Part shown: positions 6,769 to 28,368 of the stretch, one piece after another | Numbering within the stretch: position 1 is the stretch's first letter | How the letters are laid out: each line of letters begins with the position of its first letter | Assembly: GCA_016935735.1 (NCBI GenBank) | Contig: JAFGQK010000300.1 | Span: forward strand, 3,437-67,436 | Source: Spirochaetales bacterium | GTDB taxonomy: Bacteria > Spirochaetota > Spirochaetia > SZUA-6 > JAFGRV01 | Length of the DNA: 64,000 nucleotides | Reading direction: 5' to 3' | Program-made: the position numbers and the translations under genes | The notes under the pieces: model-generated | The model's input: the letters and a program-made list of their open reading frames with translations, nothing else | Database searches by the model: none | Told to the model about the DNA's origin: nothing

Positions 6769-6842
6769 GCCACCTTAGCTCAGCTGGCCAGAGCACGTGA
6801 TTTGTAATCTCGGAGTCCTCGGTTCGAATCCGAGAGGTGGCT
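6769..6842 (+). tRNA. tRNA-Thr (anticodon UGU)
   Basis: Hand-folded cloverleaf. Acceptor stem gccacct/aggtggc of 7 bp. D arm gctc/gagc. Anticodon loop tTTGTAa. T arm ctcgg-ttcgaat-ccgag. 5-nt variable loop. CCA not encoded. Confidence 0.85.
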
Positions 6843-6853
6843 TTCTTACCGGA

Positions 6854-8477: not shown

Positions 8478-8687
8478 TGATATATACTTAAATTTACTAA
8501 AATTTTGCTTGACAATAAATCTACTTTGTGTTACTTTTATTTCATTAATTTAATTCAGTTAAACAAATAATAAATAAATTTGGTCTACGTGGAGAAAATA
8601 GGTGAATTAATAAATGGATGTTTTCTATCAAAGACTATCGAGTAGACCGAAAGCTAAAATAATTATTTTAACCGGAGGTATAAATAT

Positions 8688-9866: not shown

Positions 9867-9990
9867 TTTGATAAGCCTTGTGCAGCACCTTAAAAAAACA
9901 ACAATTCGGGCCTTGACAAATGTTGAGGAATTCAACAAAATTACACCAATTGTCGTTTTTAAGAGGTGGTATTCAGTAACCTGAAAGTGG

Positions 9991-11154: not shown

Positions 11155-11275
11155 GCAAACAGGAGATAGTAAGCTTTATTAAATCGATTAGTTCATATAA
11201 ATTCTATAAATAGGCAATATATAAAAAACGATCGGAAAGCGGTAGAGAATATAGTTAATTGGTATCATATACCAA

Positions 11276-11429
11276 CAATCTTTTGGATTGCCGGTATTTC
11301 CAATAGTAGTGGTTGCCTGAAAATTATCAGGACTAATTTATTATACTATAAAGAATTATTCACCATGCTAAATGTACCGATGAGGCAAATCACTTTATTA
11401 AGGAGTATATGTTATTTTACGCAAAATAA
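11276..11429 (+). promoter_or_regulatory. Structured leader element D1 (paralog of D2 at 14067..14181). It ends in an SD sequence plus the 6-codon uORF MLFYAK.
   Basis: About 70% identity to the region upstream of the 3HCDH gene. Conserved segments: ttttggatt..tatttccaat.gtagtggtt.gcc and ggcaaa.cactttat.aaggagtata.atg. Long-range complementarity agtggtt(t)gcc / ggcaaa(c)cact. Confidence 0.5.
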
Positions 11430-11436
11430 CAAAGTA

Positions 11437-11519
11437 TTGGCCGCCAGGTTAATAAGATCAGTATAATTTTAAAAGAACCTGGACAGTCTGTTAATTGGGT
11501 GGGCGTAACCAACGTTATG
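11437..11519 (+). repeat. Island-specific structured repeat element A, copy 1 (+ orientation)
   Basis: ttggccgccaggttaat ... aaaagaacctggacag ... gttaattgggtgggcgtaaccaacgttatg. Conserved internal inverted repeat ccaggtt/aacctgg. About 75-80% identical to copies at 16994..17080 (reverse) and 23066..23153. Confidence 0.7.
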
Positions 11520-11538
11520 TTAAATAAAAAGGAATAAG

Positions 11539-12940: not shown

Positions 12941-14048
12941 TAAATATGTAAAACTGATGGGCTGCGGTTCCTATCTGCCGGGCAAGCCTGTACCTTTTGA
13001 TGATGTGGATAAAGTATTGGGCTGTTTTACAAAAGCTCCACCCCAAATTATCAAGTGGTTGGAAAATATCAAACCGGTGATGAAAGAGATCCTGGAAGTA
13101 AAGTATTATCATTATGCCATTGATCCCGAAACCCGGGAATTTACGGAAGATAATCTGAGTCTTTGTGTAAAAGCTGCAGGGAAGGCGTTAGCCGACTGCG
13201 GCATGGAACCCGGTGATATTGATTTTATCATCTACGGAGGGCCCTACCTGTACCAGATGCCTTGCCTTTCAGTACAGATTCAGGATGCCCTGGGTATTGA
13301 AAACTGTGCAGAAATGTCCATCCAGGCAAACTGTACATCCGCCTACAAGGCGCTGATGACGGCTTATCACCTGATTCGTGACGGGGGCTGTAGGACACCC
13401 CTGGTACTTTCTTCGAATATGCCCAGTGCCCAGTTAAGGGTTGAACATTATCACCAGGAAATTGTCAGGAAAGAAGACCTGTTTTTGCGCTGGTTTTTAT
13501 GTGACGGGGCCGGGGCGTTGATTCTGCAGGAAAGTAATGAGAGATCAAAGGGATTTTACATTGAAAATGTCTATCTGGAATCACCCGGTAGGAGGAAACC
13601 TTCAGCAATGTATACGAACTGGCCGGGATATTATCTCAATCCGCAGGAGGTTTATGAAAAGGGTCTCCATCACTTGAAACAGATGTTTCAAAAGCAGTTA
13701 ACCGAACATTTTCACGAGGAAGGGGGAACTATTTTTTTTAAAGGATTGATGCGGATGATCGAAAAATGCAACATCGATCTCGGCCGGCTTAAATACCTGC
13801 AGATAAATATGCCTTCCAGGCATGTGGTGGATTTGATCATCGATGAGTGTAAAGTCCTGGGAATAGAGAAAGAGCAGATATATTCATCATTGAGTGAATA
13901 CGGATATACCGGGCCTCCTGCAGCCTTTATTTCCATAGACCAATTTGTGAAAGAAAAGAAATTAAACCACGGTGATTTACTGATCAGCTTTGTGACCGAG
14001 GTAAGTAAGTTTATGCAAGCCGGTTTCAGTTTATCTTATTTTGAATGA
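12933..14048 (+). CDS. Thiolase-fold condensing enzyme: 3-oxoacyl-ACP synthase III (FabH)-like, or alternatively an HMG-CoA-synthase-like enzyme
   Basis: FabH-like layout: VKAAGKALADCGMEPGDIDFIIY; candidate nucleophile IQANCTSAYKAL; His in NMPSRHVVD. Length 371 aa. Distinguishing FabH from HMGS would need HMM scoring. Confidence 0.55.
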   Translation: MSNKYVKLMGCGSYLPGKPVPFDDVDKVLGCFTKAPPQIIKWLENIKPVMKEILEVKYYHYAIDPETREFTEDNLSLCVKAAGKALADCGMEPGDIDFIIYGGPYLYQMPCLSVQIQDALGIENCAEMSIQANCTSAYKALMTAYHLIRDGGCRTPLVLSSNMPSAQLRVEHYHQEIVRKEDLFLRWFLCDGAGALILQESNERSKGFYIENVYLESPGRRKPSAMYTNWPGYYLNPQEVYEKGLHHLKQMFQKQLTEHFHEEGGTIFFKGLMRMIEKCNIDLGRLKYLQINMPSRHVVDLIIDECKVLGIEKEQIYSSLSEYGYTGPPAAFISIDQFVKEKKLNHGDLLISFVTEVSKFMQAGFSLSYFE

Positions 14049-14066
14049 CGGGGAATTTATTGACAA

Positions 14067-14181
14067 TGTTTTGGATTATCAGTATTTCCAATCGTAGTGG
14101 TTTGCCAATTATTTATATTATAAAAAATTATTTCTCACCTCAAATCGTCAGGTGGGGCAAACCACTTTATAAGGAGTATAA
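14067..14181 (+). promoter_or_regulatory. Structured leader element D2 (paralog of D1), immediately upstream of the 3HCDH start. Contains a TTGACA hexamer at 14060..14065.
   Basis: An 11-bp long-range stem agtggtttgcc (14096..14106) / ggcaaaccact (14156..14166) encloses an inner hairpin cacct ... aggtg and an AT-rich segment. The SD aaggag lies just 3' of the stem. Confidence 0.5.
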
Positions 14182-15351
14182 ATGATACAATGCGTCGGTG
14201 TGATTGGTACAGGGAAAATGGGTACCAATATTCTCGATTACCTGTTACATTATGATTTTAAACTCAGATGGAAGTGCCACTACGAAAAAGATGTGTCAGT
14301 TCTGGATTCATTAATAGATCGAAAAGTAAAGCGTGTGCTGAAAATGCAGGAGCGTTATGATGAAAATACTTTTATACAGTACAGGGGGCGGATACAGATA
14401 AGCAGTTCGATTTACGTGTTAAAAGGTTGTGATCTGATTATTGAATCGGTAACGGAAGATAAAACGGTCAAGACCGATGTATTCCGTCAACTGAATCAAA
14501 TTATCACTCCCGAAACTATCTGTGTAACCAATACTTCCAGTCTGGATCCGGGCCTTCTGTTTCAGGGGTATAATCATAAAAATCGTTGCGGGGGCTACCA
14601 TTTTTTTTATCCCATACATTATAAAAATATCGTGGAAATCAATTGTACAGAGCAGACGGACAAAGCGACCCGGGAAATGTTAATTCATTTTTCAGAAAGT
14701 ATAAAAAAGCAGTACCTCATTCTTGATGAACCGGACCATTTTATATTGAATCGTATATTCTGCCCCCTCCAGGCACAGGCTTATCTTTTTCTGCAGGAAG
14801 GGATACTTACTGTTGATGAACTGGATAGTTTAATCCGGGAAAAAGTTTTTCCAATAGGTGTATTCGAGTTTATCGATTCAGTGGGGATAGATATAATCAG
14901 CACTTCTGTAAAAAATTATCTTTCCCATTATGCTCATAAGGAGTTTTTTAATCCCTGGATAGAGGCTATGGAGCAAATGGTTGCAACAGGAAACCTGGGT
15001 AAAAAAAGCGGCCAGGGATTTTACCGTTATTTGAAAGGGGGAAAACAGGCTATGATTTTTAATAATCAAAACAAAAACCCGCAGGCCCCCGGAGAATATA
15101 AACAAAGGGTCACTGATATGCTGGAAGCCCTCTATTTAAACGGATTCTGCCATGAAACAGGCAATATTCCCCCGGGAATTCTGGATAATGCAATAAAGGA
15201 ATATTGGGGAATGGATACGGGACCCCTTGATTTGTTGAAAAAAAGCGCCATCAATCAGCTGCGTTTAATGGAATTTTATAAAATGACAGGGAATGAATTT
15301 TATAAACCCGCGGCTGCCTGGGAAGGAGTGAACCAATTAAAAGAAAAGTAG
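14182..15351 (+). CDS. 3-hydroxyacyl-CoA dehydrogenase family protein (NAD-binding)
   Basis: Rossmann motif VGVIGTGKMG. 3HCDH signatures CDLIIESVTEDKTVK ... TNTSSL. C-terminal 3HCDH_C-like helical domain. Confidence 0.8.
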   Translation: MIQCVGVIGTGKMGTNILDYLLHYDFKLRWKCHYEKDVSVLDSLIDRKVKRVLKMQERYDENTFIQYRGRIQISSSIYVLKGCDLIIESVTEDKTVKTDVFRQLNQIITPETICVTNTSSLDPGLLFQGYNHKNRCGGYHFFYPIHYKNIVEINCTEQTDKATREMLIHFSESIKKQYLILDEPDHFILNRIFCPLQAQAYLFLQEGILTVDELDSLIREKVFPIGVFEFIDSVGIDIISTSVKNYLSHYAHKEFFNPWIEAMEQMVATGNLGKKSGQGFYRYLKGGKQAMIFNNQNKNPQAPGEYKQRVTDMLEALYLNGFCHETGNIPPGILDNAIKEYWGMDTGPLDLLKKSAINQLRLMEFYKMTGNEFYKPAAAWEGVNQLKEK

Positions 15352-16562
15352 TGATTAGCGGAATTGATATGATAACGGCCCTGGGATTGAATTATCAAAC
15401 CTGTTGGGAGAATTTGAAGAACGGACAGTCCGGGGTAAAAAAAATAACTCTTTTTGATCCGGAAGATAATGAAACCCGGATAGCTGCCCAATTACCCGAT
15501 GGTTTTGAAGAGTACGCCCGCGGTTATTATACCCGGAGACTTAAGCAGCAGATGACCCGGGTAACAAGAATGGCGTATGTCTGCGCTATTAATGCGGTGA
15601 ATAACAGCAGGATCGACTTTAACATGTTTGATCCTCTGCGGGTGGGTGTTATCCTGGGAATCGTGGATACCGGTTATAACAGCCTGGAACAGGAAGAAAG
15701 TGAGGACAATAGAATCCTGAAATCGATGAACAATGCTCCCTGTGCCTTATTATCCATCAAGTATAAGATTGAAGGCCCCTGTTTTCCTGTTAGCACCGCC
15801 TGCTCTTCCTCCGGGTATGCCATCGGTCTTGGGTATGATCTTATCGATAACAATAGATGTGATGCTGTTATTGTCGGGGGGGCGGATTCAACCCTGAGTC
15901 CGGAACAGGTGCGGGGATTCAACGAGTTATACGCTTTAAGTGTGAATAACCCGGAACCGGAAAAGGCCTCTTGTCCCTTCAGCCGGGAACGTGATGGTTT
16001 TGTGATCGGTGAAGGGGCTGGTATGCTTATCCTGGAATCCGAAGAGTCCGCATTAAAACGCAATGCGGAAATCTATGGGGAAATCGCCGGTTATGCGATG
16101 ACGACGGAAGCCTATAATTTACTTTCCCCGAAAAAGGATGGCGAGGGTATGGTGCGAACAATGGAACTTGCCGTCAAAAACGCCGGGATGACCGTTAATG
16201 ATATTGATTATATCAACGCCCATGGGACATCGACCTTCCTCAATGACCTCTGTGAAACCATGGCCATCAAAGCGCTTTTCAAAGAAAGGGCTTATTCTAT
16301 TCCTGTCACTTCGAGTAAATCAATGATCGGTCATACTATAGGGGCTGCCGGGGCTATAGAATCGATCATAACCGCTTTAAGTATAAAGGAAGGAATCCTT
16401 ACACCTACCATAAATCTGGAGTTTAATGACCCGGAATTGGATCTTGATTATGTTCCTTGCAAAGCCAGGAAGCAGGTTATCAACACCGGACTTTCCAATT
16501 CTTTCGCTTTTGGAGGACACAATGTTTCTATTGTTATTAAAAAGGCCTTTCGTAATCTTTGA
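15351..16562 (+). CDS. Beta-ketoacyl-ACP synthase (FabF/FabB-like KS, active-site Cys present)
   Basis: VSTACSSSGYAIG (catalytic Cys), HGTST and GHTIGAAG His motifs. GTG start overlaps the preceding TAG stop. Confidence 0.85.
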   Translation: MISGIDMITALGLNYQTCWENLKNGQSGVKKITLFDPEDNETRIAAQLPDGFEEYARGYYTRRLKQQMTRVTRMAYVCAINAVNNSRIDFNMFDPLRVGVILGIVDTGYNSLEQEESEDNRILKSMNNAPCALLSIKYKIEGPCFPVSTACSSSGYAIGLGYDLIDNNRCDAVIVGGADSTLSPEQVRGFNELYALSVNNPEPEKASCPFSRERDGFVIGEGAGMLILESEESALKRNAEIYGEIAGYAMTTEAYNLLSPKKDGEGMVRTMELAVKNAGMTVNDIDYINAHGTSTFLNDLCETMAIKALFKERAYSIPVTSSKSMIGHTIGAAGAIESIITALSIKEGILTPTINLEFNDPELDLDYVPCKARKQVINTGLSNSFAFGGHNVSIVIKKAFRNL

Positions 16563-16658
16563 AGGTTTCATCACCGGAAAAACAGGAGTATTGATCAAAA
16601 TTTCTTATTGTAATATAATGTGTCAAATTGCACAAAATTTATAAGGTGGAGTATGTTA

Positions 16659-16961
16659 ATGAAAAAGATAACTGAAAATACACGTGCCGAGGTTAAAGAT
16701 ATCATATTTGACTTTTTAGCCGATGCATGTGAAATAGAGAAATCGGAATTAAATGAAGATATGAAAATTATCGAAGAATTGGGGGGCGATTCCCTGATGT
16801 TCTTAAGTATGCTGGAAATATTCAAGAAAAAATATAATTTGAATGTTGAACTGAAAGCCATCGGCAAATATATCTTAAAACATCCTGCAGAAACAATCGG
16901 GGAAATCATTGATGCTACTTTAGTAATTATTGAGTATGAAAATAGGATTGTTGACATGTAA
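16659..16961 (+). CDS. Acyl carrier protein
   Basis: LGGDSLMFLSMLE phosphopantetheine-attachment (DSL) motif. Start chosen at the ATG 8 nt after SD aaggtgg. The listed ORF extends further upstream. Confidence 0.75.
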   Translation: MKKITENTRAEVKDIIFDFLADACEIEKSELNEDMKIIEELGGDSLMFLSMLEIFKKKYNLNVELKAIGKYILKHPAETIGEIIDATLVIIEYENRIVDM

Positions 16962-16993
16962 CCGATAGTTCCCCCGGGCTGTCGAACTTATAG

Positions 16994-17080
16994 CATAACG
17001 TTGACTACGCCCACGACCCGGATAATGAGCTGTCCAGGCTCCAATTAATTATACTAATCTGTTTAACCTGGCGGCAGGCG
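16994..17080 (-). repeat. Repeat element A, copy 2 (reverse orientation)
   Basis: Its reverse complement reads cctgccgccaggttaaacagattagtataatt ... cctggacag ... gggcgtagtcaacgttatg, homologous to A1 and A3. Confidence 0.7.
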
Positions 17081-17085
17081 TTTAT

Positions 17086-17134
17086 CTATTTTGTTTAAAA
17101 TCTTGTTATTTTAACAAGATTTTAAACAAAATAG
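17086..17134. repeat. Perfect 49-bp palindrome P1 (23-bp arms, 3-nt centre)
   Basis: ctattttgtttaaaatcttgtta ttt taacaagattttaaacaaaatag. Homologous to P2 at 23012..23061. Confidence 0.85.
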
Positions 17135-17157
17135 TATATATAAGGAAGTTTTATTGC

Positions 17158-18096
17158 TTGTATTTATGTATGAAAAATAATGTAATGGCAGATATTGTGT
17201 TCCCGGCTTTTGGTGCGGAATACCTGGGTTGCGAAAGGGATTTTGTCCAGCAGGAAACAACCGGGATTGAATTTTACCTGCAAAGAGCGGAAAAAGCTGT
17301 AGATATCGATAAGCAGTTTATTGAGGCGGATAAAGGCGCAGAGGTCTACGATGAATTGCAATCCCAGTTTGCCAGCTATATTTACAGCTGTATCTTTGCG
17401 GATATCATTAATCAACGAGGAATCAAATCCGGGCTGGTGGCAGCGTATAGCATGGGATTGTACGCGGCCTTATACCATTGCGGAGTTTTTTCTTTTGAAG
17501 ATGGTTTACGCATTATCAGGGATGCCTGTCAACTGGCTCAGGCCACTGCAAAAGGTAAAAAGTTTGCTATGGGGGTCATTGTCGGTTTGGATGTTGATGA
17601 TGTAAAAGGTTTGATTTCCGCCCATGCAACCGGTGTGGATATAATCAATATCAACAATCAATATCAAATCATTATCTGTGGGCCGGAGAATGAAGTCGTG
17701 AAAATAATTACTGCTGCTCAAGATGAGGGGGCGTTGAAAGCTTATATCCTGCAGATAAAAAACCCCTATCATACAGCCCATGTAAAGTCTGCAAGGCATG
17801 AATTTGAAAAAGTGCTGGAAACCTATTCATTACAAAACAGCAAATACCCTCTGGTCTCTTCTCTGGATCAGAAGATATACAATACCCGGAAGGAAATAAT
17901 TAATGAAATGGTTAAAAACATTTATAATTCTTCCAACTGGTATAAAACAATGGAGGTATTGATTGAAAAGGGTTCAAAAAAAATCATCGAGTGCGGTCCG
18001 GGAAAGAGCCTTTGTAATATGGCCAGATTCATACCAGGGGATTACAAAATATACCATATGAAACTGGTTTACAATAATAATTTCAACCTCAAATAA
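17158..18096 (+). CDS. Acyltransferase (malonyl-CoA:ACP transacylase-like, FabD fold)
   Basis: FPAFGAEYLG N-terminus. Nucleophile elbow AYSMGLYAAL in the GHSxG position. Length 312 aa. The true start may be one of the internal Met residues (MADIVFP). Confidence 0.6.
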   Translation: MYLCMKNNVMADIVFPAFGAEYLGCERDFVQQETTGIEFYLQRAEKAVDIDKQFIEADKGAEVYDELQSQFASYIYSCIFADIINQRGIKSGLVAAYSMGLYAALYHCGVFSFEDGLRIIRDACQLAQATAKGKKFAMGVIVGLDVDDVKGLISAHATGVDIININNQYQIIICGPENEVVKIITAAQDEGALKAYILQIKNPYHTAHVKSARHEFEKVLETYSLQNSKYPLVSSLDQKIYNTRKEIINEMVKNIYNSSNWYKTMEVLIEKGSKKIIECGPGKSLCNMARFIPGDYKIYHMKLVYNNNFNLK

Positions 18097-18134
18097 GCAA
18101 TTAAATCCGGCAGAAATGATTTATCAGGTGGGCT

Positions 18135-19478
18135 CTAAATAGTATCCGTGCCTTCTTTAATCAACCAGAGATCGGAAACATTTTTATAAAATTCTTCGAG
18201 GGGTAATGTTGTTTTTAATACCGAATTAAAAAAATTGTATTTATTAAGGTCATAATCAATAATCTGTTCCTTTACTTGATTGTAATACACAGTTCCGGGC
18301 ATGGGAGTAAGAATCGTATACCCCGCATAGACTACTTTGTGGGAGTTTGAATAATCAGCCATGGCCTTAAAATCATCTTCCTTATAATAAGGAGGAATGA
18401 CATAATTTCCCCGGATCTTTATCCCATTGGCCTGGAGTATATTAATCGCCTTTTCTATCAGTTCCGGCCTGGTATCTTTATTATATTTTTTTAATTCATC
18501 ATAGCGATAGGATTCAAAACCGCAGATAACTACTTGCAGACCGCATTGAGCCAGTTTCTCGATTAAATCGGGATGCGCGGCTACCGTGTCTACACGAATA
18601 TCAATGACCAGCTCCTTTTTTATGTTTTCTTCCAGGATACGGTCACATAATTGGTGAATGAATCCGGGATTCACGACTGTGTTCGCATCGGCAAAACGAA
18701 TAACGTTATACTCAGGATCTATGGATTGCATTTCATCAATAATGCTTTTTATCTCCCTCTGGTAAAATTTTCCTTTGTATTGAGGCCGGATGGAACAGAA
18801 AGAACAATTGTAGGGGCATCCCAGTGAAGTAAAAATATAGGTGATCGGGCCGATTTTTCCCCGTATTTTGTAGGCCTGTATCCATTTTTTGATAAATGAA
18901 CGGTCCGGCACGATAAAATCCTGCCCGGCTGAATAATACCGGGTTGTTAAAGGCTTTCCGGGAACCAATTGATTGTGCTTATTAATTAATATTCCGGCAA
19001 CGGCTTCTACATCTTTGTTTTCCTGTTTTGCGCTGACGATTTCTCTGAAAATTTTAGCGGATTCCCCGGGACAGATAATATCCGCCGCGGTACTGATAAA
19101 ATCCTCCGGACATAATGTTGCATGGAGTCCGCCGGCAATGGTAAGGATGTTATGATTATAGGTTTTTACAGTTTTTAAAATAGCGGCTCCACCGTTAAAT
19201 TCCGATGCTATAAAAGTAACCCCGACCAAATCAGGATTGATTTTTTCAAGGTATTGACGGGTTAATTCGCCGGGGGGAGGAGCATGCGGGTGTAAATCAT
19301 ATTCTGCTTTCATATCCAGGACTGTAACATCATGGTCCCTGACTGCCCCGGCAACGGTCAATAATCCCAACGGAGGGCCGATTAATTTCTGATGAATAAA
19401 TTTTTTGGCATCTGCAGAAGCATAGTGAAATATTCCATTTTCATTTGATCTGGGCGGATTGATTAAAAGAATTTTCAT
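18135..19478 (-). CDS. B12-binding domain radical SAM protein (class B rSAM)
   Basis: N-terminal cobalamin-binding-like domain (ILLINPP ... GPPLGLLTVAGAV). LGCPYNCSFCS CxxxCxxC motif. Length 447 aa. Confidence 0.8.
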   Translation of the reverse strand: MKILLINPPRSNENGIFHYASADAKKFIHQKLIGPPLGLLTVAGAVRDHDVTVLDMKAEYDLHPHAPPPGELTRQYLEKINPDLVGVTFIASEFNGGAAILKTVKTYNHNILTIAGGLHATLCPEDFISTAADIICPGESAKIFREIVSAKQENKDVEAVAGILINKHNQLVPGKPLTTRYYSAGQDFIVPDRSFIKKWIQAYKIRGKIGPITYIFTSLGCPYNCSFCSIRPQYKGKFYQREIKSIIDEMQSIDPEYNVIRFADANTVVNPGFIHQLCDRILEENIKKELVIDIRVDTVAAHPDLIEKLAQCGLQVVICGFESYRYDELKKYNKDTRPELIEKAINILQANGIKIRGNYVIPPYYKEDDFKAMADYSNSHKVVYAGYTILTPMPGTVYYNQVKEQIIDYDLNKYNFFNSVLKTTLPLEEFYKNVSDLWLIKEGTDTI

Positions 19479-19633
19479 ATATTCTCCCGAATTATATCAA
19501 TTTATAAATTATACAGAATCCTGATTGTAATAGAAAAGAAGGTGTTTTGCAACATCTTACCGGTGGGAGTAATTCCCGGTTCCCCGTTTTTTATAGTCTT
19601 TTCTGTATTCTATCAATAGAATTATCAATAAAA

Positions 19634-19659
19634 TGTGGACAAAAGAATTGCTGTCCACA
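19634..19659. promoter_or_regulatory. Candidate operator: perfect 8-bp inverted repeat TGTGGACA-N10-TGTCCACA
   Basis: Sits in the divergent intergenic region between the two radical SAM genes and abuts the -35 hexamer. Confidence 0.45.
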
Positions 19660-19663
19660 ACTA

Positions 19664-19692
19664 TTGACAGTATCTCAATAATATAGTATACA
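19664..19692 (+). promoter_or_regulatory. Sigma70-like promoter for the SPASM radical SAM gene (TTGACA-17 bp-TATACA)
   Basis: Consensus -35, 17-bp spacer and -10 TATACA, leaving a roughly 110-nt leader to the ATG at 19808. Confidence 0.5.
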
Positions 19693-19807
19693 TAACTGAA
19701 AAATTATAGAGGGCAAGTTGTAATTTCCTAAATAAATTTTAACTCTTGACAGGGAAATTTGTCTTAAAAGAATCTATTTTAAACAAACAGAAAGAAGGAT
19801 TTTGTTT

Positions 19808-20773
19808 ATGGAAAATGATATTTTTCAGAAAGATTTGAAACACATAGGGATTGTCCTTTCATTTACATGTAATCTGAAGTGTAAAATGTGTAAATTATGG
19901 ATGAAGCCCCCATTGTCGCTTTCCCTGGATTCGATCAAGAGTATATTAAAACAGGCTAAAGCATTGGGTGCAGACATTTTTACACCTTTCGGGGGGGAAC
20001 CGGTATTAAGAAAAGATATTTTTGAAATTTTTAGTTATGCCCACCAATTAGGGTATGATATTGAATTTGTGACAAATGGAACTTTAATCAATGAGCAGGT
20101 AGCTGAAAGATTATTCAAGTATATATCCGGGATTTCCATATCCATTGAAGGATCGAAAGAACATCACGATGAAATAAGAGGTAATGGGACTTTTGATAAG
20201 GCAATCTCCGCAGTCAAGTTTCTGACAAAGTACAAACGCCGGGATGCGAATATCTGTTTAACTATGGTCGTAACCAAAAATAGCTATAAATATATGAAAA
20301 AACTTGTCGATTTGGCCAGTGAGCTCAAAGTTGATAAAATTTTTTACCAACCTTTCAACAGGGCCCAGGCAAGAAAAGAAAATGTACATGACTTTCTGGT
20401 CCCGGCAGTCGAAATTCCCGTTTTGCAGCTGGAAATAGAGAGTACCATCAATTATGCAATGCACAAGAATGTACAATTGGGTTCTGTTATCGAATTTAAA
20501 TTGATCCCTTTATACTTTAAACTAAATGGTAAAATAAAACCAACAAAAGGATGCTTCTTACCATACCATGATATGTTAATTATTCCCAATGGTAAAGTAT
20601 TTGCTTGTCCCTTCGAGCGTATTGAAGTAGGTGATATCAATGAGAACAATCTTGACTATATCTGGAATTCCGAAAAATATGAAAAACAAAGAGAAAAAGC
20701 AAGATTAAAAAAATGCCGCGGTTGTCTTGCCAATTGCTCAGATTTGGATTCATATAAAATAGAAAGTGCATAA
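19808..20773 (+). CDS. Radical SAM protein with C-terminal SPASM/twitch Cys-rich domain
   Basis: FTCNLKCKMCK CxxxCxxC. C-terminal CFLPYH ... ACPFE ... CRGCLANCSD. SD gaaagaagga 8 nt upstream of the ATG at 19808. The listed ORF begins at an upstream TTG. Confidence 0.8.
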   Translation: MENDIFQKDLKHIGIVLSFTCNLKCKMCKLWMKPPLSLSLDSIKSILKQAKALGADIFTPFGGEPVLRKDIFEIFSYAHQLGYDIEFVTNGTLINEQVAERLFKYISGISISIEGSKEHHDEIRGNGTFDKAISAVKFLTKYKRRDANICLTMVVTKNSYKYMKKLVDLASELKVDKIFYQPFNRAQARKENVHDFLVPAVEIPVLQLEIESTINYAMHKNVQLGSVIEFKLIPLYFKLNGKIKPTKGCFLPYHDMLIIPNGKVFACPFERIEVGDINENNLDYIWNSEKYEKQREKARLKKCRGCLANCSDLDSYKIESA

Positions 20774-20798
20774 AATCCTGGTATAACCGCAGAATAAT

Positions 20799-21644
20799 TT
20801 ATTTTAAACCGTTATGCGATTTATAATATTTTACGATGAGACATTCGTTAAAACGCTTTATTACATTATATGCTAAACCAAAGCCGTCAAGCAATTTCTT
20901 AATTTCATTACGTTCACGATAAGGTGTATCACCAGGAAGACTGTCATACAGATCTTTTGGGTCGATATTCATCTCTTTCGCCTGCATAAAAATTTCGGCC
21001 ATTTCCTGGCGTTCTTTTTTTAATATTCTTGAGAAAGTAATCCTTATCTTTATCCAGGAAAAAAAAACTCTCAAAAAATCTTTGTTTGTATATGTCATTA
21101 TCTGTTTTACCGCAAGCAAAGAACCTTTCCGGGCAAGTTCATCAATATCATTAAGTCTTTTGCGCTTTAGCTTACCCGAGGAATCAAGAATGCCGATTTT
21201 TTTATAAATTCTTTCAAGTACTCTCTCGACCTGGTAAAATGCGACAAAGAGGTGACCATGCAATGCAACAACACGCATAGCCTCATTAATTATTGTTTTG
21301 ATTAGTTTCTCATCCGAAAGACGATCCACCACACCGGAAGAAATAATAACTGTTTTATAAGAACAGTTCTCAAAAGGCAGGCTTCTTGCATTTGCTTTTA
21401 TTAATTTAATGGAATGCCTGATATAGGCGTATTTTATCATTTCATCTACGATATCGACACCGTCGGCTATATAACCTTTATCACGGAGATGTTTTACTAT
21501 CAGTCCCTGTCCTGCACCGATTACCAATACAGGGCTTGCAATATCATTAATTATTTTATCCGTCACATGAGTATTCATGTGACGGTTTTCCATTTTATCC
21601 CAGAAAGGACTCCATATTGACCACCATTTTATATTCTTATCCAT
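20799..21644 (-). CDS. Class I SAM-dependent methyltransferase
   Basis: VLVIGAGQGLIVKHL motif I, acidic D after the beta2 strand, Rossmann-like layout. Confidence 0.6.
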   Translation of the reverse strand: MDKNIKWWSIWSPFWDKMENRHMNTHVTDKIINDIASPVLVIGAGQGLIVKHLRDKGYIADGVDIVDEMIKYAYIRHSIKLIKANARSLPFENCSYKTVIISSGVVDRLSDEKLIKTIINEAMRVVALHGHLFVAFYQVERVLERIYKKIGILDSSGKLKRKRLNDIDELARKGSLLAVKQIMTYTNKDFLRVFFSWIKIRITFSRILKKERQEMAEIFMQAKEMNIDPKDLYDSLPGDTPYRERNEIKKLLDGFGLAYNVIKRFNECLIVKYYKSHNGLK

Positions 21645-21898
21645 AAATATTTCTCACTTTTAAAATAATTTTTAACCCATCGCAGCCTTCGGCTGCAACC
21701 AGAGTAGTTCCAAAAATCTTCTTAAAATTGGAAGATTTGGGGGTATAATACTATATTACTTGAGTTTGTCCCGCAACCCCAAACAAGGCAAGCCAATAAC
21801 ATCCATCCATTATATATGGGGGCGTGATTGAATTAAGGCATACTATATATAGCATTGATAGAAGGCAATTTCATCATAATTGAAGTTGTCGGACAACC

Positions 21899-22879
21899 TC
21901 AATGATAGACCTCTTGATGGACTAAAGCAGCCTGTCCCTGCTCCAACCACCTGGCGCAATCCGGGGGTAGTATTTCAGAAACAGTAGTTTCATAAAGGAC
22001 TATCTCATCTTCAGACAGGACCCCTTTCCAGCGATTATTCGTTCCTCTGTACAAAAAACGCTGGCTTCCGCCAAAGAAAGCTTTTCCCCCACCTGGAACG
22101 ATATTATCCGCATTGTTTTTCATCGACTTGAATGATGCATTATCAAGTAAAGTTGGCCAGATATCTTCATTTACTTCAATATCAAGATATCTTGCGATCA
22201 GACGTATTTGCCTATCAATATCTCCTAAAAGATCATTGAAATGCATCAGCAAAATATTGGGTAGATGCCTGTAAGCCCACCATGTTTGCACATTGTTCAG
22301 AATTGATAAACCAAGATTTCCCTCACCTAATCCGGAGAACCAGCCTTTAGTCATAAAGTCTTTAAAGAATTCGTGAATATCATCTGATGGGCGAGTAAGG
22401 GGATCACCGACCCGGCCAGGGGTATTGTTGAATATGTCAAACATTTCCGGCGTTAAATGGCGGTAGTGATTCCAGAGAGACATAAAAATATCTCGTCCGT
22501 CACGCGCAATGTAGATATATTTTACCTGTGGATAATAGATAAGACCGTCGAGGGGTAGGTGCGTTTTGACAAAGCGCCGATGAGTTTGCGCTTCGATGAG
22601 ATCAAATTGCTTTTTAATCATGGCGGGCCGAAAATCGATCCACGGTGATAACTGCCAGATCGGTGCAGGTATTTCTTGATTTTGAAAAATCAAATGAGCA
22701 ACAATGGTCTGTATCCATGTTGTCCCCGATTTGCCGGTAGTGGCGATGATAATGTCATCAGCACGCGGTTTAAAATCATTCCAATAGGTGCTGTCCATGG
22801 TATGATTTTGATAGATATGATTGACGCTCGGCAGTGGTGACATTCCCCACGGTTCACCTTTATTATTTTTTGTTGTCAT
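21899..22879 (-). CDS. PAPS-dependent sulfotransferase family protein
   Basis: 5'-PSB motif TGKSGTTWIQ and 3'-PB motif RDGRD ... typical of Sulfotransfer_1 domain enzymes. Confidence 0.8.
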   Translation of the reverse strand: MTTKNNKGEPWGMSPLPSVNHIYQNHTMDSTYWNDFKPRADDIIIATTGKSGTTWIQTIVAHLIFQNQEIPAPIWQLSPWIDFRPAMIKKQFDLIEAQTHRRFVKTHLPLDGLIYYPQVKYIYIARDGRDIFMSLWNHYRHLTPEMFDIFNNTPGRVGDPLTRPSDDIHEFFKDFMTKGWFSGLGEGNLGLSILNNVQTWWAYRHLPNILLMHFNDLLGDIDRQIRLIARYLDIEVNEDIWPTLLDNASFKSMKNNADNIVPGGGKAFFGGSQRFLYRGTNNRWKGVLSEDEIVLYETTVSEILPPDCARWLEQGQAALVHQEVYH

Positions 22880-23011
22880 GATTCACTCCTCACATGTTAT
22901 TTAAAAACTTCCGATCCGGGCGTATGCCCGGTACCGGAAAATTTAAAGAAATAGGTTCCTGCCTGAATTGTCGATACTATTATGGCAATAACCGACAAGG
23001 AGGAATCTATG

Positions 23012-23061
23012 CTATTTTGACTCAAAATCTTGTCAAAATAACAAGATTTTAAGCAAAATAG
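23012..23061. repeat. Imperfect 50-bp palindrome P2 (homolog of P1)
   Basis: ctattttgactcaaaatcttgtcaaaataacaagattttaagcaaaatag. Two arm mismatches relative to a perfect palindrome. Confidence 0.8.
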
Positions 23062-23065
23062 ATAA

Positions 23066-23153
23066 ACGTTGGCCGCCAGGTTAATGAGACCAGCATAATT
23101 AAAAGAACCTGGATAGCTTGTTAATTAGGTCGTGGGCTTAAGCCTTCGTTATG
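23066..23153 (+). repeat. Repeat element A, copy 3 (+ orientation)
   Basis: ttggccgccaggttaatgagaccagcataattaaaagaacctggatag ... gttaattaggtcgtgggcttaagccttcgttatg. Confidence 0.7.
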
Positions 23154-23580
23154 GTAAAAACCTACAACAATCGGCAGGAAAAGTCCAGTAAAATAATGCA
23201 ATTATGGAGCGCCTGCGGTACTTTTACGAATGTAATTCACACAGGTACAAATTACTCTAAGTTCGAGGCTGGGGTAATCATGGAAGAGAATAAATCGGAC
23301 TGGAAGGCTGTTTGTCTTTACTGGCTATTCAGGTACAGTAAAAAGAGCGTATTATGTAAAAATACGGAATACAGATCGGTATGGAAAAGAATACGCTCTT
23401 GAAGGCGAAGGTCTTTTCGCAAGATGTAACTACTATTGTGCCTCGACGAATGTTGAGGAGTACCTTATAAATTGAGTCCCATTGTTGTTAAAATGGCTGT
23501 ACCGTAAATAAAAAAAACCGAAAATACAGGAAAATCTATATAAAATACTTGCATAAATCAGAATTATTGATTAAATTGCT

Positions 23581-23626: not shown

Positions 23627-23708
23627 GGGGAGATACCCGAGTGGCCAAAGGGGGCAGACTGTAAATCTGTTGGCTCAGCCTTCGAAGGTTCGAATCCTTC
23701 TCTCCCCA
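23627..23708 (+). tRNA. tRNA-Tyr (anticodon GUA), long variable arm
   Basis: ggggaga ... cccgagtggccaaaggg ... cagaCTGTAAAtctg ... long variable arm ... ggttcgaatcc ... tctcccc-a. Close to the E. coli tRNA-Tyr pattern. CCA not encoded. Confidence 0.85.
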
Positions 23709-23794
23709 TTATTTCCCGGATTTGTTGAAATTGAGTACTCTTCAAAAAGAAAAAAGTTTTAATAGTCTATCTTATTTTATGGGGATTTACCATT

Positions 23795-24244
23795 TTGATA
23801 AGTAAAATTGCAAAACCTTTTTACTTAGAAGGTTTACGTTTTGAATGTAACCGGTGCTCTGTCTGCTGTAGACATACACCAGGTTATGTGTTTCTTTCTT
23901 TAAAAGATCTGGAATTACTTGTTTCCTTTACCGGGATGACAGAAGAAACCTTTTTATCCTCGTATTGCCGGGAAATAGTTACCATTCGCGGTATAAAAAT
24001 AAGTTTAAAAGAAAAAGCAAATTACGATTGTATTTTCTGGGAAAAGGATGGATGTATATATTATGAGGCACGGCCGTTTCAATGCAGAAGCTTTCCTTTC
24101 TGGAAACAGTACCTCGGGACAAAAAGAAAATGGGATACCCTGTTATCATTCTGCCCGGGAATCGGGAAAGGGCAGATACATACAAAAGAAGAGATTGAAG
24201 AGTGGATCGAGAAAGTAAGCCAGGAAGAATACTATTATAAATAA
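23795..24244 (+). CDS. YkgJ/UPF0153 family cysteine-cluster (putative Fe-S or Zn) protein
   Basis: ECNRCSVCCR CxxCxxCC motif plus downstream Cys residues (YDCIFW ... DGCIYY ... FQCRSFPFW). Confidence 0.6.
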   Translation: MISKIAKPFYLEGLRFECNRCSVCCRHTPGYVFLSLKDLELLVSFTGMTEETFLSSYCREIVTIRGIKISLKEKANYDCIFWEKDGCIYYEARPFQCRSFPFWKQYLGTKRKWDTLLSFCPGIGKGQIHTKEEIEEWIEKVSQEEYYYK

Positions 24245-24278
24245 ATTCCTTATAACAATGTAATGGAGTTTCATAGTT

Positions 24279-25220
24279 ATGCTGGTTAAATTCTGGGGAG
24301 TAAGGGGTTCAATACCGACCCCCCTAACATCTCAACAGGTAAAAAATCGAATAGCTTCTGTTCTTCAGCGGGTGAAACCGGATGATCTGATTTCACCTGA
24401 AAGCAAGGAAATATTTCTTTCAACGCTCCCGGAGGATATTTTCGGTACTGTAGGAGGGAATACCACCTGTATAGAAGTGATAACGAAAAATCCAATATGT
24501 CTTATTTTTGACGCAGGAACCGGGTTAAGAGAACTTGGTAATTACTATGCAAGAGAAAAAAAAGAGGTAAATGAATTTCATATCTTTTTTACTCATTTCC
24601 ACTGGGATCATATACAGGGAATTCCGTTTTTTGCCCCGTTTTTCAATAAAAAGAATTCGATTTACTTTTACAGCCCTGTTCCTCAATTCGAGACATACTT
24701 AAAAGATCAAATGAAATTCCCTTATTTTCCTATTGAAATGGGGTTTCTCGCTGCACGGATTCATTTTATTGAACTGGAAGGAAGAGAAAAAAAGATAAAA
24801 GATTCAGTAATCGCCTGGAGGCGGATGAAACACCCCGGCGGCTGCTTTTCATATAAAGTATCCAGTAATGGAAAAAGCACCATTGTCGCAACCGATTCGG
24901 AGATTACGGAAAAAGAGTTTAAACAAATAGATGAAAATATTTCTTTTTTTAAAGATGCTGATATGCTTATCCTGGATTCCCAGTACACACTGACCGAGCA
25001 CATCAATAAAATCGACTGGGGTCATTCATCATATAGTATGGATGTTGACCTTGCCTCTGTCTGGAAAGTGAAAAACCTTGTTCTTTTTCATCATGAACCC
25101 CTTTATAATGATAAGAAAATCATGAGTATAGAAAGGCTTTCCAGGTGGTATCTGAACCACCTTAAGAATAAAAATATTAACATTATCATCGCCATTGAGG
25201 GGAAGGAGCTTAAGGTGTGA
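24279..25220 (+). CDS. MBL-fold metallo-hydrolase
   Basis: THFHWDH (HxHxDH) motif plus downstream His/Asp ligands. Confidence 0.7.
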   Translation: MLVKFWGVRGSIPTPLTSQQVKNRIASVLQRVKPDDLISPESKEIFLSTLPEDIFGTVGGNTTCIEVITKNPICLIFDAGTGLRELGNYYAREKKEVNEFHIFFTHFHWDHIQGIPFFAPFFNKKNSIYFYSPVPQFETYLKDQMKFPYFPIEMGFLAARIHFIELEGREKKIKDSVIAWRRMKHPGGCFSYKVSSNGKSTIVATDSEITEKEFKQIDENISFFKDADMLILDSQYTLTEHINKIDWGHSSYSMDVDLASVWKVKNLVLFHHEPLYNDKKIMSIERLSRWYLNHLKNKNINIIIAIEGKELKV

Positions 25221-25414
25221 ATGATCCAGATAACGATTTTATTTTACAGCTAAAGAGAAAAGATGTTATTGGTCTTTATATTTCATTAAAACAGTCTGGT
25301 TGTCAATTAACAGATTCCACAGCCAGAATTTTAAAAAAAATCGAGGATTATCTTTATACTTTTCTTACGATTGACCAATTTGAGAATATAGAAGATATTT
25401 ATACAAGCTATTAG
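25217..25414 (+). CDS. Hypothetical small protein (65 aa), ATGA start/stop overlap with the upstream gene
   Basis: A 4-nt overlap with the MBL gene suggests translational coupling. No recognisable motif. Confidence 0.35.
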   Translation: MNDPDNDFILQLKRKDVIGLYISLKQSGCQLTDSTARILKKIEDYLYTFLTIDQFENIEDIYTSY

Positions 25415-25491
25415 GAGTTGCTTTTCATATTGATATTTTATTATCTTCTTAAACTGAATAGATAGGTAATCTATTATAACAAGAGAGGAAT

Positions 25492-26541
25492 ATGGCAATA
25501 CAGATAGTAAAAACCTTTTTTATATTTCTCTGTGTATTATTTGTAATGATGATTTTTTTTGGTATTGGTGTTGTCTATCTGAACAGCCCTCCCGGGACAA
25601 AAAGTTATAATAATACATTTATTATTAAAAAAGGTGAAAGCCTTATCAATATATCAAACAATCTTGAATCAAAGGGAATCATCCGGTCTGCTATCTTTTT
25701 ACGAATCGTGAGTAAATTACTGGAAACAGAGAAAGATTTCAGAGCCGGATATTATAAGATGGAAAAAGGATTTTCCACCTTTGATGTTCATAATCTCTTA
25801 ATTTCAGGAAAACAGACACAGATAAGAATTACTATCCCGGAAGGTTGGACAAAGACAAAGATCGCACGCCATTTTGAAGATTATGGTATTTACCGTACAG
25901 AAGAGATATTGAAAGCAATTCAATCAGAAAATCTTATGAAAAAATATGGCATAAGGGCAAATAATCTGGAGGGATACCTGTTCCCGGATACTTATTTTAT
26001 CAATGAGTCACTGGCAGCAGAAGAAATTATCGAACGGATGGTGAAGAATTTCTTTATAAATTTAAAAGAAATTGTACCTGATTATGAATCAATGAGTAGA
26101 AAACAGATTCATAACAATGTCATTATGGCTTCCATTATTGAAAAGGAATACAGAATATCTGAAGAAGCCCCGATTATTTCATCTGTCTTTTATAACAGAC
26201 TAAAAACACAGATCGGGCTGGAGTCATGCGCTACAATAGAATATATCATTACGGAGATATATGGAGAGCCGCATCCGGAAACAATAACTGCAGAAATGAA
26301 AGCGATCGATTCGCCATACAATACCTATATGTGGTACGGGCTTCCCCCGGGGCCTGTAACCAATCCTGGCAGAATCGCACTTGCCGCTTCATTTCGCCCG
26401 GCACAAACGGATTACTGGTATTTCTGTGTAAAAAATTCTGAAACAGGAGAACATTATTTTTCAAGAACCCTGGAAGAACATAATCAGGCAAAATGGTATT
26501 ACCTGAAAGGCCGCGGCCTGCCTCCAAAAGAAAATGATTAA
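25492..26541 (+). CDS. mltG: Endolytic murein transglycosylase MltG (YceG family)
   Basis: N-terminal TM helix. YceG-like domain motifs (GYYKM, IRITIPEGWT, EGYLFPDTYF, conserved E in ESCATIEY). Confidence 0.8.
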   Translation: MAIQIVKTFFIFLCVLFVMMIFFGIGVVYLNSPPGTKSYNNTFIIKKGESLINISNNLESKGIIRSAIFLRIVSKLLETEKDFRAGYYKMEKGFSTFDVHNLLISGKQTQIRITIPEGWTKTKIARHFEDYGIYRTEEILKAIQSENLMKKYGIRANNLEGYLFPDTYFINESLAAEEIIERMVKNFFINLKEIVPDYESMSRKQIHNNVIMASIIEKEYRISEEAPIISSVFYNRLKTQIGLESCATIEYIITEIYGEPHPETITAEMKAIDSPYNTYMWYGLPPGPVTNPGRIALAASFRPAQTDYWYFCVKNSETGEHYFSRTLEEHNQAKWYYLKGRGLPPKEND

Positions 26542-26574
26542 AATCATTTTTTAAAAAAAAGGAGGTAAGAGTGG

Positions 26575-28368
26575 ATGATACAGGAACTGTATAGAACAGA
26601 AAAGATGGAATCAGGAACAGAAATTAAAGAAGAAATAAAGAGAAAAATTTTTATTTCCGATCTGGTCGGTGAATATGTAGCCCTTAAAAAAAAGGGAACA
26701 AAATACTGGGGTTTGTGTCCATTTCATACGGAAAAAACCCCTTCTTTTACTGTGTCACCGGACAAAGAGATGTATTATTGCTTTGGCTGTCATAAGCACG
26801 GGGATATTTTTACCTTTATCATGGAGATGGAGAAAGTATCATTTCCCGAAGCCCTTAAAATTCTGGCGCAAAAAGCACATATCCCCCTTTCTTTTGAATA
26901 CAATAAAGAAAAGGAATCCCGGAAAGAATTGCTTTTAGAGTTATATAATCGGCTTACCATGAGTTTTCACCATCTCCTTTTGAACAGCGAGAATGCCCGG
27001 CATGCAAGATCGTATCTTGAAGAAAGAGGGGTGAAACCTGGAATAATTTCCACATTTCAACTTGGATATGCTCCCGGTGACCGGAACTGGCTTATGAATT
27101 TTCTTAAAAAAAAGAATTACTCGGAAGAATTTATGGAAACATCCGGGTTGTTTACCCGGAGGAATAATGAACTTGTTCCTTATTTTTATTACAGAATCAT
27201 CTTTCCCATTAAAAACACCAGGGGTCAGGTGATTGCATATGGAGGTCGGAGGCTTTCCGAAGGGGGACCGAAATACCTGAATTCGCCGGAAACACTTATA
27301 TTCAAAAAAGGAAATACATTGTTTAACCTGGATCAGGCTCTGATAAGTGCAAAAGAGTCACACTCTATCTACCTTGTAGAAGGGTATATGGATGTCCTGT
27401 CTCTTTTTCAGGCAGGAATAACAAACTGTGTTGCACCACTTGGAACAGCATTTACGGAAAATCAGGCTGGAATACTTAAGAGGTATGCAGATAAAGTAAT
27501 CCTTTTTTTTGATGGTGATGAGGCAGGGGAGAAGGCAGCTTTAAGGGCAATTGAAATTTGTGAAAGTAAAGGTATTGAATCCGGGGTCGTTGAACCTCAA
27601 GAGGGACTTGATCCGGATGATATTTTACAAAAACATGGTATAAATGGATTGAAAAAAATCATAGAATATCCTATAAATAGTTTTAGATACCTTTTAAATC
27701 GGGCGTTTCTCAAATTCAATAGGGAAACTCCAAAGGGAAAAGAGAATATATTTAATTTTATTTTTCCATATTTAAAAAGAATTGATTCTCAGATAAAACG
27801 GGATGGGTATCTATCTATTCTGGCAGAGTCTTTAAAGGTTGATTTTAAATCTGTGTGGAAAGATTTTCAGAACCAGAACCGGTTTATGGAGGTGAAAGAA
27901 GAGAATCCTGCAAAAAAAAACAGTTTCTTTGAATCTATTTCAGAGGAGTTGTTTTTAATGCTGGCTTTAACTGCAAACAGGGATTCATTTGCCGGTGTAA
28001 GGTGCGATCTTGCACTCGATCATCTTACAGATCCCTTTGCACGGGAAATATATATAGCCCTGGAAGAGAATTTCCGGGAAGGCACTACTTCACTGGAATC
28101 GCTTATGGAGAAAATCGAAAATGAGGAATTATCCTCATTAATCGCAGAAAAGAATACATCCAGTGAGTTTTCGTATCACCCGGAGAAACTTATCTCGGAT
28201 GGAGTTTTACGGATAAAACGTCGATTATTATTAAAGAAGAGGGAAGAAATTTCTTTTTTAATAAATAAATACGAAAAAAGTGAACCCTGGAAGATGAAGG
28301 ATCTTCTTGTCGAGAAAATGATACTTGATAAAGAATATGAGGAGATAAGGAAGAATAAAGATGTCTGA
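26575..28368 (+). CDS. dnaG: DNA primase
   Basis: Zinc-binding [11 protein letters not shown] ... [23 protein letters not shown] ... FDGDEAG. Confidence 0.9.

Follow-up and report, generated by a model that had tools for sequence, protein, structure and literature searches.

Palindrome-bearing, promoter-like repeat units in a spirochaetal lipid/polyketide-type gene cluster

A short list of extragenic repeats is known to carry promoters. The Neisseria REP2 repeats and the Borrelia plasmid repeats IR-A and IR-B are intergenic sequences of 120–180 bp that lack terminal inverted repeats, contain two internal stem-loops and a promoter, and sit just upstream of genes; they occur at low to moderate copy number, and their proposed origin is a duplicated upstream regulatory region (PMC3184786). 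The Correia elements (NEMIS/CREE) of Neisseria are AT-rich and intergenic, ~105–155 bp in length, exist as size variants that differ by an internal segment, carry promoters, and form long hairpins when transcribed (PMC2229807, PMC3184786). REPs, known from enterobacteria and pseudomonads, are usually G+C-rich and lie mostly at the 3' ends of genes or between convergent genes, and many of them bear a tag, GTAG or CGTC, that is associated with RAYT transposases (PMC3733652). Here, we analysed a 64-kb stretch of DNA (the window) from an NCBI metagenome-assembled genome (MAG) labelled Spirochaetales bacterium, in which three copies of a repeat unit, composed of a palindrome (P) and an adjoining region (A), lie in an unusual gene cluster of the lipid/polyketide type. 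The window also encodes a homologue of Borrelia P83/100.

The P-A units and the P family

On balance, the P-A units are probably promoter-bearing, mosaic, palindrome-rich extragenic repeats, whose P end would act as an outward sigma-70-type promoter and whose copies would serve genes of the cluster. Each unit would join a conserved AT-rich palindrome (P) at one end to a looser inverted-repeat region (A) at the other, with P belonging to a repeat family that appears to be dispersed in uncultured Spirochaetia genomes. The right half of the palindrome would supply a −35-like [T/A]T[A/G]ACA, and a −10-like TAGTAT or TAGCAT would follow ~9 nt after the core, making the P end a putative outward-facing promoter. 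The copy between the ACP and acyltransferase (AT) genes would interrupt a KS-ACP-AT operon and give the acyltransferase gene a promoter of its own; the copy upstream of the sulfotransferase gene would drive the sulfotransferase-methyltransferase pair; and the copy upstream of the crotonase (ECH) operon, which seems to have lost the centre of P, has no gene on its P side. The mirror-image arrangement of two of the copies would thus arise because they serve genes on opposite strands, with no switch involved. The P family lies upstream of many unrelated genes in related bacteria, and the unit would therefore be an ordinary promoter cassette and not part of an invertible switch.

An earlier note on this DNA had reported three copies of A, two of them next to palindromes (P1, perfect; P2, with two mismatches) in mirror image around a set of tailoring genes. 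Reading, alignment, and profile search all placed the three A copies where the note had them (Table 1), and the profile built from these copies found no fourth A anywhere in the 64 kb. P1 and P2 were as described, P2 having in addition an enlarged loop when folded as DNA. The gene order acyltransferase (forward), B12-radical SAM (reverse), SPASM-radical SAM (forward), methyltransferase (reverse), and sulfotransferase (reverse) was upheld by a Pfam scan of 49 open reading frames (ORFs) of the window, which leaves out five ORFs at 43.6–43.9 kb and 58.8–64.0 kb, and the mini-ORFs and the AAGGAGG Shine-Dalgarno (SD) site were read as the note had them. Two of its statements need correction: the antisense-A plus P modules that it called identical are ~92% alike in P and 73% alike in A, and the sulfotransferase gene, which it placed right after such a module, starts ~130 nt from P2.

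The three units of the window are ~115–150 bp in length. Every one of them has TATGNTA or TATACTA at both ends, the termini reading TATRCTAT... and ...CGWTATG, and the flanks outside the three units are mutually unrelated (alignment z ~0); the unit edges are thus sharp. Pairwise, A1 and A3 are 83% identical and A2 is 73% identical to either (pairwise blastn E = 2e-9 to 4e-19), and a block of 13 nt, GCCGCCAGGTTAA, is invariant across the three copies. Folded as DNA, P1 reaches −20.8 kcal/mol (z = −11), and the vestigial P at A1 retains a 9-bp stem (z = −4.9). Between the two units that retain a full P, the P part is identical at 56 of 61 positions and the A part at 68 of 93 (p = 0.004), and this better conservation of P fits constraint, or self-correction of the palindrome, acting on P. 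A profile search of the 64 kb found no other P, the sole extra match being a weak P-like site at 21709–21755. This site belongs to a module (P3) that begins with a GC hairpin, ATCGCAGCCTTCGGCTGCAA, at 21679–21698, continues with a degenerate P core at 21712–21738, whose arms carry a compensated G/C change, and ends with a TATAAT at 21744–21749 that the promoter scan reads as TTAAAA-16-TATAAT. The P3 module aligns to members of the P family in metagenomes (L030, L041, and others).

Outside the window, P can be followed much further than A. The 27-nt P core, AAAATCTTGTNANNNTAACAAGATTTT, has 40 exact matches in metagenome contigs, whereas a search of viral contigs with the same 22 specified bases gave 0 matches, and in nearly all of the 40 metagenome loci the units are intergenic. 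The family consensus reads AAAATCTTGTTAAAATAACAAGATTTT-CGGTTGTTA-TAGTATAA. In many loci with differing neighbours, the core is part of a unit of ~101–122 bp, which we designate the H-type, composed of a hairpin (ATCGCAATCTTC...GAAGATTGCGAT), a T-run, the P core, CGGTTGTTA, and TAGTATAAG. Across the different loci, the core is combined with A, with the H hairpin, with a hairpin like that at 21679, or with a module like that at 22909 of the window. The locus L039 (H-type) is spirochaetal, its PepT having Spirochaetia/Spirochaetales MAGs as nearest named relatives at 70% identity; judged by such relatives, at least some of the P-core contigs are from Spirochaetia. A full-text search of the literature for the core sequence returned unrelated eukaryotic and viral matches only. 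Samples also differ at one locus, where the arms of the P core are unchanged and its 3-nt loop is AAA in L022 (1839–1865) and L054 and TTT in L056, a flip that is the signature of hairpin-templated switching at a palindrome.

The surroundings of the core in this family point to a promoter. A −10-like hexamer (TAGTAT) usually follows ~9 nt after the core, and in other flank classes (L019/L041, L021, L035, and L028; more weakly L022/L030) such a hexamer lies 9–11 nt past it. When the loci were oriented by this hexamer, the neighbouring gene on the −10 side was co-oriented in 14 of 17 loci (p = 0.006), compared with 6 versus 7 on the opposite side, and in 12 of the listed loci the gene starts 19–66 nt after the core. 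The genes concerned are diverse: L25/Ctc, RlmE, a HAD hydrolase, and an outer-membrane protein are our readings from sequence, and the one downstream gene that carries a database name encodes an arylformamidase/cyclase family protein. This context suggests that P is the −35-bearing part of a promoter that has been copied around the genomes of this lineage. In the window, the predicted promoter of P1 agrees in geometry with the metagenome family consensus, and that of P2, on the minus strand, is among the nine sites with the top promoter-like score (10/12) in 10.5–24.5 kb. The A-facing side of both palindromes reads TAGATA and thus lacks the conserved final T.

The position of the A2-P1 copy can be compared with homologous clusters, in which KS, ACP, and AT are co-directional and tightly spaced, with ACP-AT gaps of 64 nt (L007), −8 nt (L008), and 19 nt (L009/L010). 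No P or A was found at the ACP-AT junction of these clusters, and the corresponding spacer in the window is 208 nt long and filled by A2-P1. Because the homologous clusters are tight and free of P and A there, we infer that the spacer is an insertion that split an ancestral operon. The intergenic regions themselves could not be compared at the nucleotide level, because the closest relative of the sulfotransferase is 71% identical and has a different gene context and that of the acyltransferase is 42% identical.

Several observations weigh against the promoter reading. First, promoter-like matches are common in AT-rich DNA (55 found versus 45 expected in the region), and our calls are based on the consensus; the 15-nt spacer of P1 is suboptimal. 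Second, viewed from the −10 side, the window palindromes have their 3-nt loop flipped compared with the H-type (TTAACA/TTGACA versus ATAACA). Third, P3 is directed antisense to a gene, and in L022, where P is intact, there is no gene ahead of its −10-like side. Fourth, within the window P is confined to the gene cluster and precedes none of ~45 other genes; this organism therefore does not use P as a generic promoter, and its genes could be co-regulated through P. Finally, A has been kept at 73–83% identity in three copies, with its 13-nt invariant block, which a pure passenger role would leave unexplained. The fourth point also bears on an outcome that the earlier note had named as fatal to its own proposal, namely that the repeats are generic and untied to this gene island: for P, this is what related organisms show, but not what is seen within the window.

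The relatives of A say less. Scans with an A pattern gave no match in metagenomes, three matches in the genome collection that are unconnected to the source organism and approximate the number expected by chance, and five in viral contigs without similarity outside the pattern. The sole relative is a shortened A-like module, ATCGTTGGCTAC...GTAGCCAACGATAAG, which follows the P core in L022 (also L054–L056) and ends 25 nt before a flavin reductase gene. The L022 module and A share a 5' block (CGTTGGC) and a 3' block (GGGTYGTGGG.GTAGCCAACG.TA.G), and the L022 module has a perfect 12-bp outer stem. A common layout links the window units, L022, and the H-type: TATRCTAT, the P core, a second hairpin, and then ATG or AAG. 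The second hairpin keeps its base, A[T/A]CG...CG[A/T]T, in all three, and its stem sequence differs. Region A could be carried along as a passenger, act as an upstream regulatory region, or be the part that is recognised when the element spreads.

If P does act as a promoter, the units would explain the transcriptional layout of the cluster: a reusable cassette would have split an ancestral KS-ACP-AT operon and supplied the tailoring genes with promoters of their own. The core could then mark promoters in a lineage without genetics. Annotators and assemblers of sediment Spirochaetia will in any event meet the 27-nt core repeatedly, and it breaks de Bruijn contigs. A bolder and doubtful extension is that a conserved protein of sediment Spirochaetia recognises the P core, be it a global regulator with its binding site over the −35 or an HUH-type transposase that recognises hairpins, and that the units are undescribed mobile promoter cassettes composed of P and a second, A- or H-type hairpin, the base of which is conserved and the stem of which varies freely. 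By entering operons, as at the ACP-AT junction, such cassettes would rewire biosynthetic clusters.

Alternative explanations for the repeats

The pattern had been put down in the earlier note to a co-regulated promoter/operator module, a MITE-like (miniature inverted-repeat transposable element) or mobilisable cassette boundary, or an invertible segment. Support for the first lies with P, namely the family context, the fixed −10 spacing, and the 14:3 orientation of neighbours, and does not extend to A or to co-regulation. As an explanation in its own right, A and/or P would be operators through which a dedicated transcription factor, binding GCCGCCAGGTTAA and the CCAGGTT...AACCTGG dyad, turns on three targets at once, namely the crotonase operon, the acyltransferase gene, and the sulfotransferase-methyltransferase pair. 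A promoter function of P would leave room for this proposal, which we regard as tentative and rather unlikely. All copies of A and P in the 64 kb lie inside the cluster, the 13-nt block is invariant in copies that are only 73–83% identical, and between the dyad arms there is a perfect TATAAT (CATAAT in A3) with no usable −35, as is typical of activator-dependent promoters. However, the cluster contains no regulator gene, the nearest being LuxR-type response regulators at 345–1001 and 56428–57090; three units would fall within 11.7 kb of 64 kb with p ~0.09; and the dyad arms are ~24 nt apart. Moreover, A2 points antisense into the ACP gene and A3 into an ORF without homologues, and the A-like unit in L022 precedes an unrelated gene, that of the flavin reductase. 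The operators of Rex, BirA, AraR, NsrR, and LexA variants are not known to have a 12-3-12 spacing.

In a further proposal, the two-hairpin unit would be mobilised in trans by an enzyme such as an HUH/Y1 transposase (IS200/IS605 or RAYT type), which recognises hairpins without leaving a duplication; the units in the cluster would then be products of insertion, with promoter activity as a by-product. This is unlikely, even though part of the cassette-boundary proposal was supported: the module is discrete, with sharp edges and three unrelated flanks, and has relatives in other genomes. To these can be added more than 10 H-type copies in metagenomes, of ~101–122 bp, with conserved ends and different neighbours; the presence of two different hairpins, the second with a conserved base (ATCG...CGAT) and a stem that differs among H-type, L022, and window; the ACP-AT junctions of homologous clusters that lack the unit; and the P loop that is flipped (AAA/TTT) at one locus between samples. 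Terminal inverted repeats, however, are absent, the unit ends being a short direct repeat, and no target-site duplication flanks the 13 H-type relatives examined. The TATGNTA at both ends is nearly the same in the three window copies, and is therefore part of the unit or a specific target and not a random duplication. No transposase domain was found in the scanned window ORFs, and no filled-versus-empty pair was found among close relatives. The genome also duplicates leaders that contain no palindrome (B1/B2 and 1954–2084/38087–38217), which indicates plain recombinational copying. There is no sign that the intervening 5.7 kb moves as a cassette.

That A is a structured cis-regulatory RNA, a leader or riboswitch upstream of the crotonase operon and other targets, is improbable. 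Its placement would suit such a role at two sites, since only 17 nt separate A1 from the ECH start and 25 nt separate the A-like unit of L022 from the start of a gene; all three copies preserve the inner stem CCAGGUU/AACCUGG, with a change in A2 that gives a G-U wobble on the sense strand only, and the 12-bp outer stem of L022 is perfect. In the window copies, however, the outer stem is degenerate, and A folds no better than shuffled sequences on either strand (z −1.4 to +0.4). Rfam gave no match at the gathering score or at E up to 10, with noise hairpins only. Two of the three copies have no supported downstream gene in the sense direction of A, A1 being the exception, and the sequences are too few for a covariation test.

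Recombination between the inverted A-P modules, flipping 17.1–23.0 kb and altering expression of the tailoring genes, is very improbable. The inverted repeats around this segment are real (arms 17045–17123 and 23024–23102, 79 nt at 87% complementarity, with a further 36 nt at 75%), and such flanking repeats are also found in fim, hin, and the Bacteroides invertons. Those switches have a gene for a site-specific recombinase close by and carry their promoter within the invertible DNA, so that orientation decides expression. Here, by contrast, no recombinase, invertase, or transposase domain was found in the scanned ORFs, and it is the repeats that contain the predicted promoters, both of which face inward. 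A flip would give each end gene an equivalent promoter; it exchanges like for like, and expression would therefore be unchanged. Identity between the inverted copies is unbroken for 18 nt at most, less than the ~25 nt that RecA-dependent exchange usually requires.

The Logan contigs of run SRR13394437 bear on the same question. They match the window at 7125–14182, 14153–17116, 17096–23062, and 23685–29470 with 0 mismatches, so that A1, A2, part of P1, and all of P2 are reproduced in independent contigs, and the repeats are therefore not assembly artefacts. Contigs end inside P1 (17096–17116) and at the edge of P2 (23062), as might be expected of an inverting segment, but all of them fit one orientation without mismatch, and none spans a full repeat. 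We rejected the breaks as a sign of inversion: the palindrome exceeds the word size of the assembler (k = 31), and breaks also occur elsewhere (14153/14182 and 23685). Short-read assemblies of these organisms are likely to break up at the long perfect palindromes of the P family. The identification of the units as integron attC sites was dropped, as there is no integrase and there are no R'/R'' core sites.

The gene cluster and neighbouring features

Coordinates of the units, of the genes around them, and of the duplicated leaders are collected in Table 1.

Table 1. Features of the P-A units and their surroundings (positions in the window)
Feature	Position	Strand	Description or basis
B1	11275..11409	+	Duplicated leader, abuts the left edge of the A1 unit, ends in AAGGAGTATA; alignment with B2, direct repeats
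Vestigial P	11410..11431	.	Outer arms only, TGTTATTTT-ACGC-AAAATAACA; left edge of the A1 unit; three-unit alignment
A1	11432..11521	+	Alignment, profile; ends 17 nt before the ECH start codon
ECH gene	start codon 11539	+	Pfam
B2	14063..14180	+	Paralogue of B1; AAGGAGTATA runs straight into SD and ATG of 3HCDH (14182); no P-A unit
3HCDH gene	start 14182	+	
ACP gene	16620–16961		Pfam
A2	16992..17085	-	Alignment, profile; points antisense into the ACP gene
P1	17086..17134	.	Perfect 23+3+23 palindrome; 27-nt family core 17097–17123
P1 predicted promoter	17111..17137	+	TTAACA (17111–17116), 15 nt, TAGTAT (17132–17137); consensus-level call only
Acyltransferase (AT) gene	ATG at 17170	+	Start agrees with the 308-aa NCBI protein
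P3 module	21679..21749	+	Hairpin, degenerate P core, TATAAT; between the methyltransferase and sulfotransferase genes
Sulfotransferase gene	start 22879	-	
P2 predicted promoter	23036–23009	-	TTGACA, 16 nt, TAGCAT; faces the sulfotransferase gene; consensus-level call only
P2	23012..23061	.	Imperfect palindrome; family core 23024–23050
A3	23062..23155	+	Alignment, profile; terminal ATG opens ORF 23151–23402

The cluster (7344–22879) is bounded by tRNA-Thr (6768–6843) and tRNA-Tyr (23627–23708), and Pfam assigned ECH-ECH-HMGS-like-3HCDH-KS-ACP to the genes upstream of AT. Clusters of the same family recur in metagenomes of anaerobes and in Spirochaetes MAGs (L007, L008, and L009/L010), with genes for a 4HBT thioesterase, ECH, ECH, an HMGS-like protein, B12-radical SAM, 3HCDH, KS, ACP, and AT. 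A U32 peptidase is common to the window cluster and one relative, L007; compared with its relatives, the window cluster has in addition two GT2 genes and genes for a SPASM radical SAM protein, a methyltransferase, and a sulfotransferase.

The terminal ATG of A gives ML-stop, MLNKKE-stop, and an ORF of 83 aa in the three copies. The MLNKKE mini-ORF of A1 (11519–11541) ends in a TAA stop 1 nt before the ATG of ECH (TAAGATG), a layout that would allow translational coupling; the mini-ORF itself has no ribosome-binding site. The 83-aa ORF (23151–23402) had no Pfam match, no homologue among 1.84 billion representative proteins, and no called-gene record, and is probably not a gene; tRNA-Tyr, further downstream of A3, has its own TGGTATAAT promoter. 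In the sense direction of A2, an ORF of 120 aa (16595–16957, minus strand) runs antisense to the ACP gene; it has no Pfam match and is probably spurious.

Two modules near the sulfotransferase gene are also mosaic with respect to the metagenome family. The hairpin-plus-P arrangement of P3 (21679–21760) recurs in the metagenome contig L030, including 23 identical bases (CCCATCGCAGCCTTCGGCTGCAA), and its TTAAAA-16-TATAAT site is strong and aims antisense into the 3' end of the sulfotransferase gene. A hairpin module, TTCCGATCCGGGCGTATGCCCGG, is located at 22909–22937, in the presumed 5' leader of the sulfotransferase gene, and hairpins of this type recur ~85 nt from the P core in L015 (885–908) and L016 (606–631). 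The module is thus a further shared mosaic block; read on the minus strand, it is followed by GTTTTT, and by its sequence the hairpin could be an attenuator.

The leaders B1 and B2 (~135 nt) align locally with z = 22, and their homology stops exactly at the left edge of the A1 unit: in B1, which lies upstream of the ECH operon, AAGGAGTATA is followed by an ATG and then directly by the P-A unit. The B duplication is unrelated to the P-A units. The region upstream of P2 was considered as a further B1/B2 homologue and rejected (alignment z ~0). Outside the cluster, a repeat of 131 nt with 88.5% identity lies at 1954–2084 (minus strand) and 38087–38217 (plus strand), upstream of a methyltransferase gene (1020–1871, minus strand) and a radical SAM gene (38208–40694, plus strand), respectively. 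It consists of a terminator-like hairpin, CACCTGC-GAAG-CAGGTGG, with a T-run, then TATAATAAGGAGG, and then CCACCTCC...GGTGG, which could sequester a ribosome-binding site. The repeat, which had no Rfam match at the gathering score, may by this sequence arrangement be a shared riboregulatory leader.

Comparison with described repeat systems

The closest analogues of the window units appear to be Neisseria REP2 and Borrelia IR-A/IR-B, as defined in PMC2229807 and PMC3184786. Set alongside by description, the two groups agree in that (i) they are of the same size class; (ii) they have no terminal inverted repeats; and (iii) they contain two stem-loops, which in the window units are the P hairpin and the A dyad. 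The described repeats carry a promoter; in the window units one is predicted from consensus-level −35 and −10 hexamers in a fixed geometry and from the 14:3 bias of neighbouring genes. No similarity in sequence was noticed, although no search aimed at the REP2 or IR sequences was made. One of the two described examples, that of Borrelia, is also spirochaetal. The groups differ in how the promoter is placed: in REP2 and the IR repeats, promoter, ribosome-binding site, and ATG run in one direction and are fused to the downstream ORF, whereas the best promoter candidate of the window units faces outward from the palindrome end. They differ also in the ATG, which in REP2 and the IR repeats starts the downstream ORF; the terminal ATG of A has no ribosome-binding site, and no copy of the three has a real ORF that begins there. 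A general function of the second-hairpin ATG as a start codon, as in REP2, was thus rejected, since among ~18 H-type relatives it opens a long ORF in 1 (L039).

Other repeat classes resemble the units in part. In Correia elements, the ends are inverted repeats of 24 bp and the TA target is duplicated (PMC2229807); the window and H-type units show neither trait. Measured against the classical MITE of the Correia, RUP, or ERIC type (definition in PMC2229807), the units are likewise small, non-coding, A+T-rich, multicopy, and intergenic, but they show no terminal inverted repeats and no copy-specific target-site duplication. With REPs and BIMEs, they share the principle of a short palindromic unit, here the 27-nt P core, that occurs in varying extragenic mosaics with other modules; P differs from them in being AT-rich, in lying upstream of gene starts, and in having no flanking GTAG or CGTC, and no transposase was found in the window. 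No new kind of mechanism is revealed by these comparisons. If the predicted promoters are functional, the spirochaetal family would join the few promoter-carrying extragenic repeats described so far, and the units are best read, by analogy, as further members of a type already known, that of the promoter-bearing mosaic extragenic repeats, in which the spirochaetal family is new.

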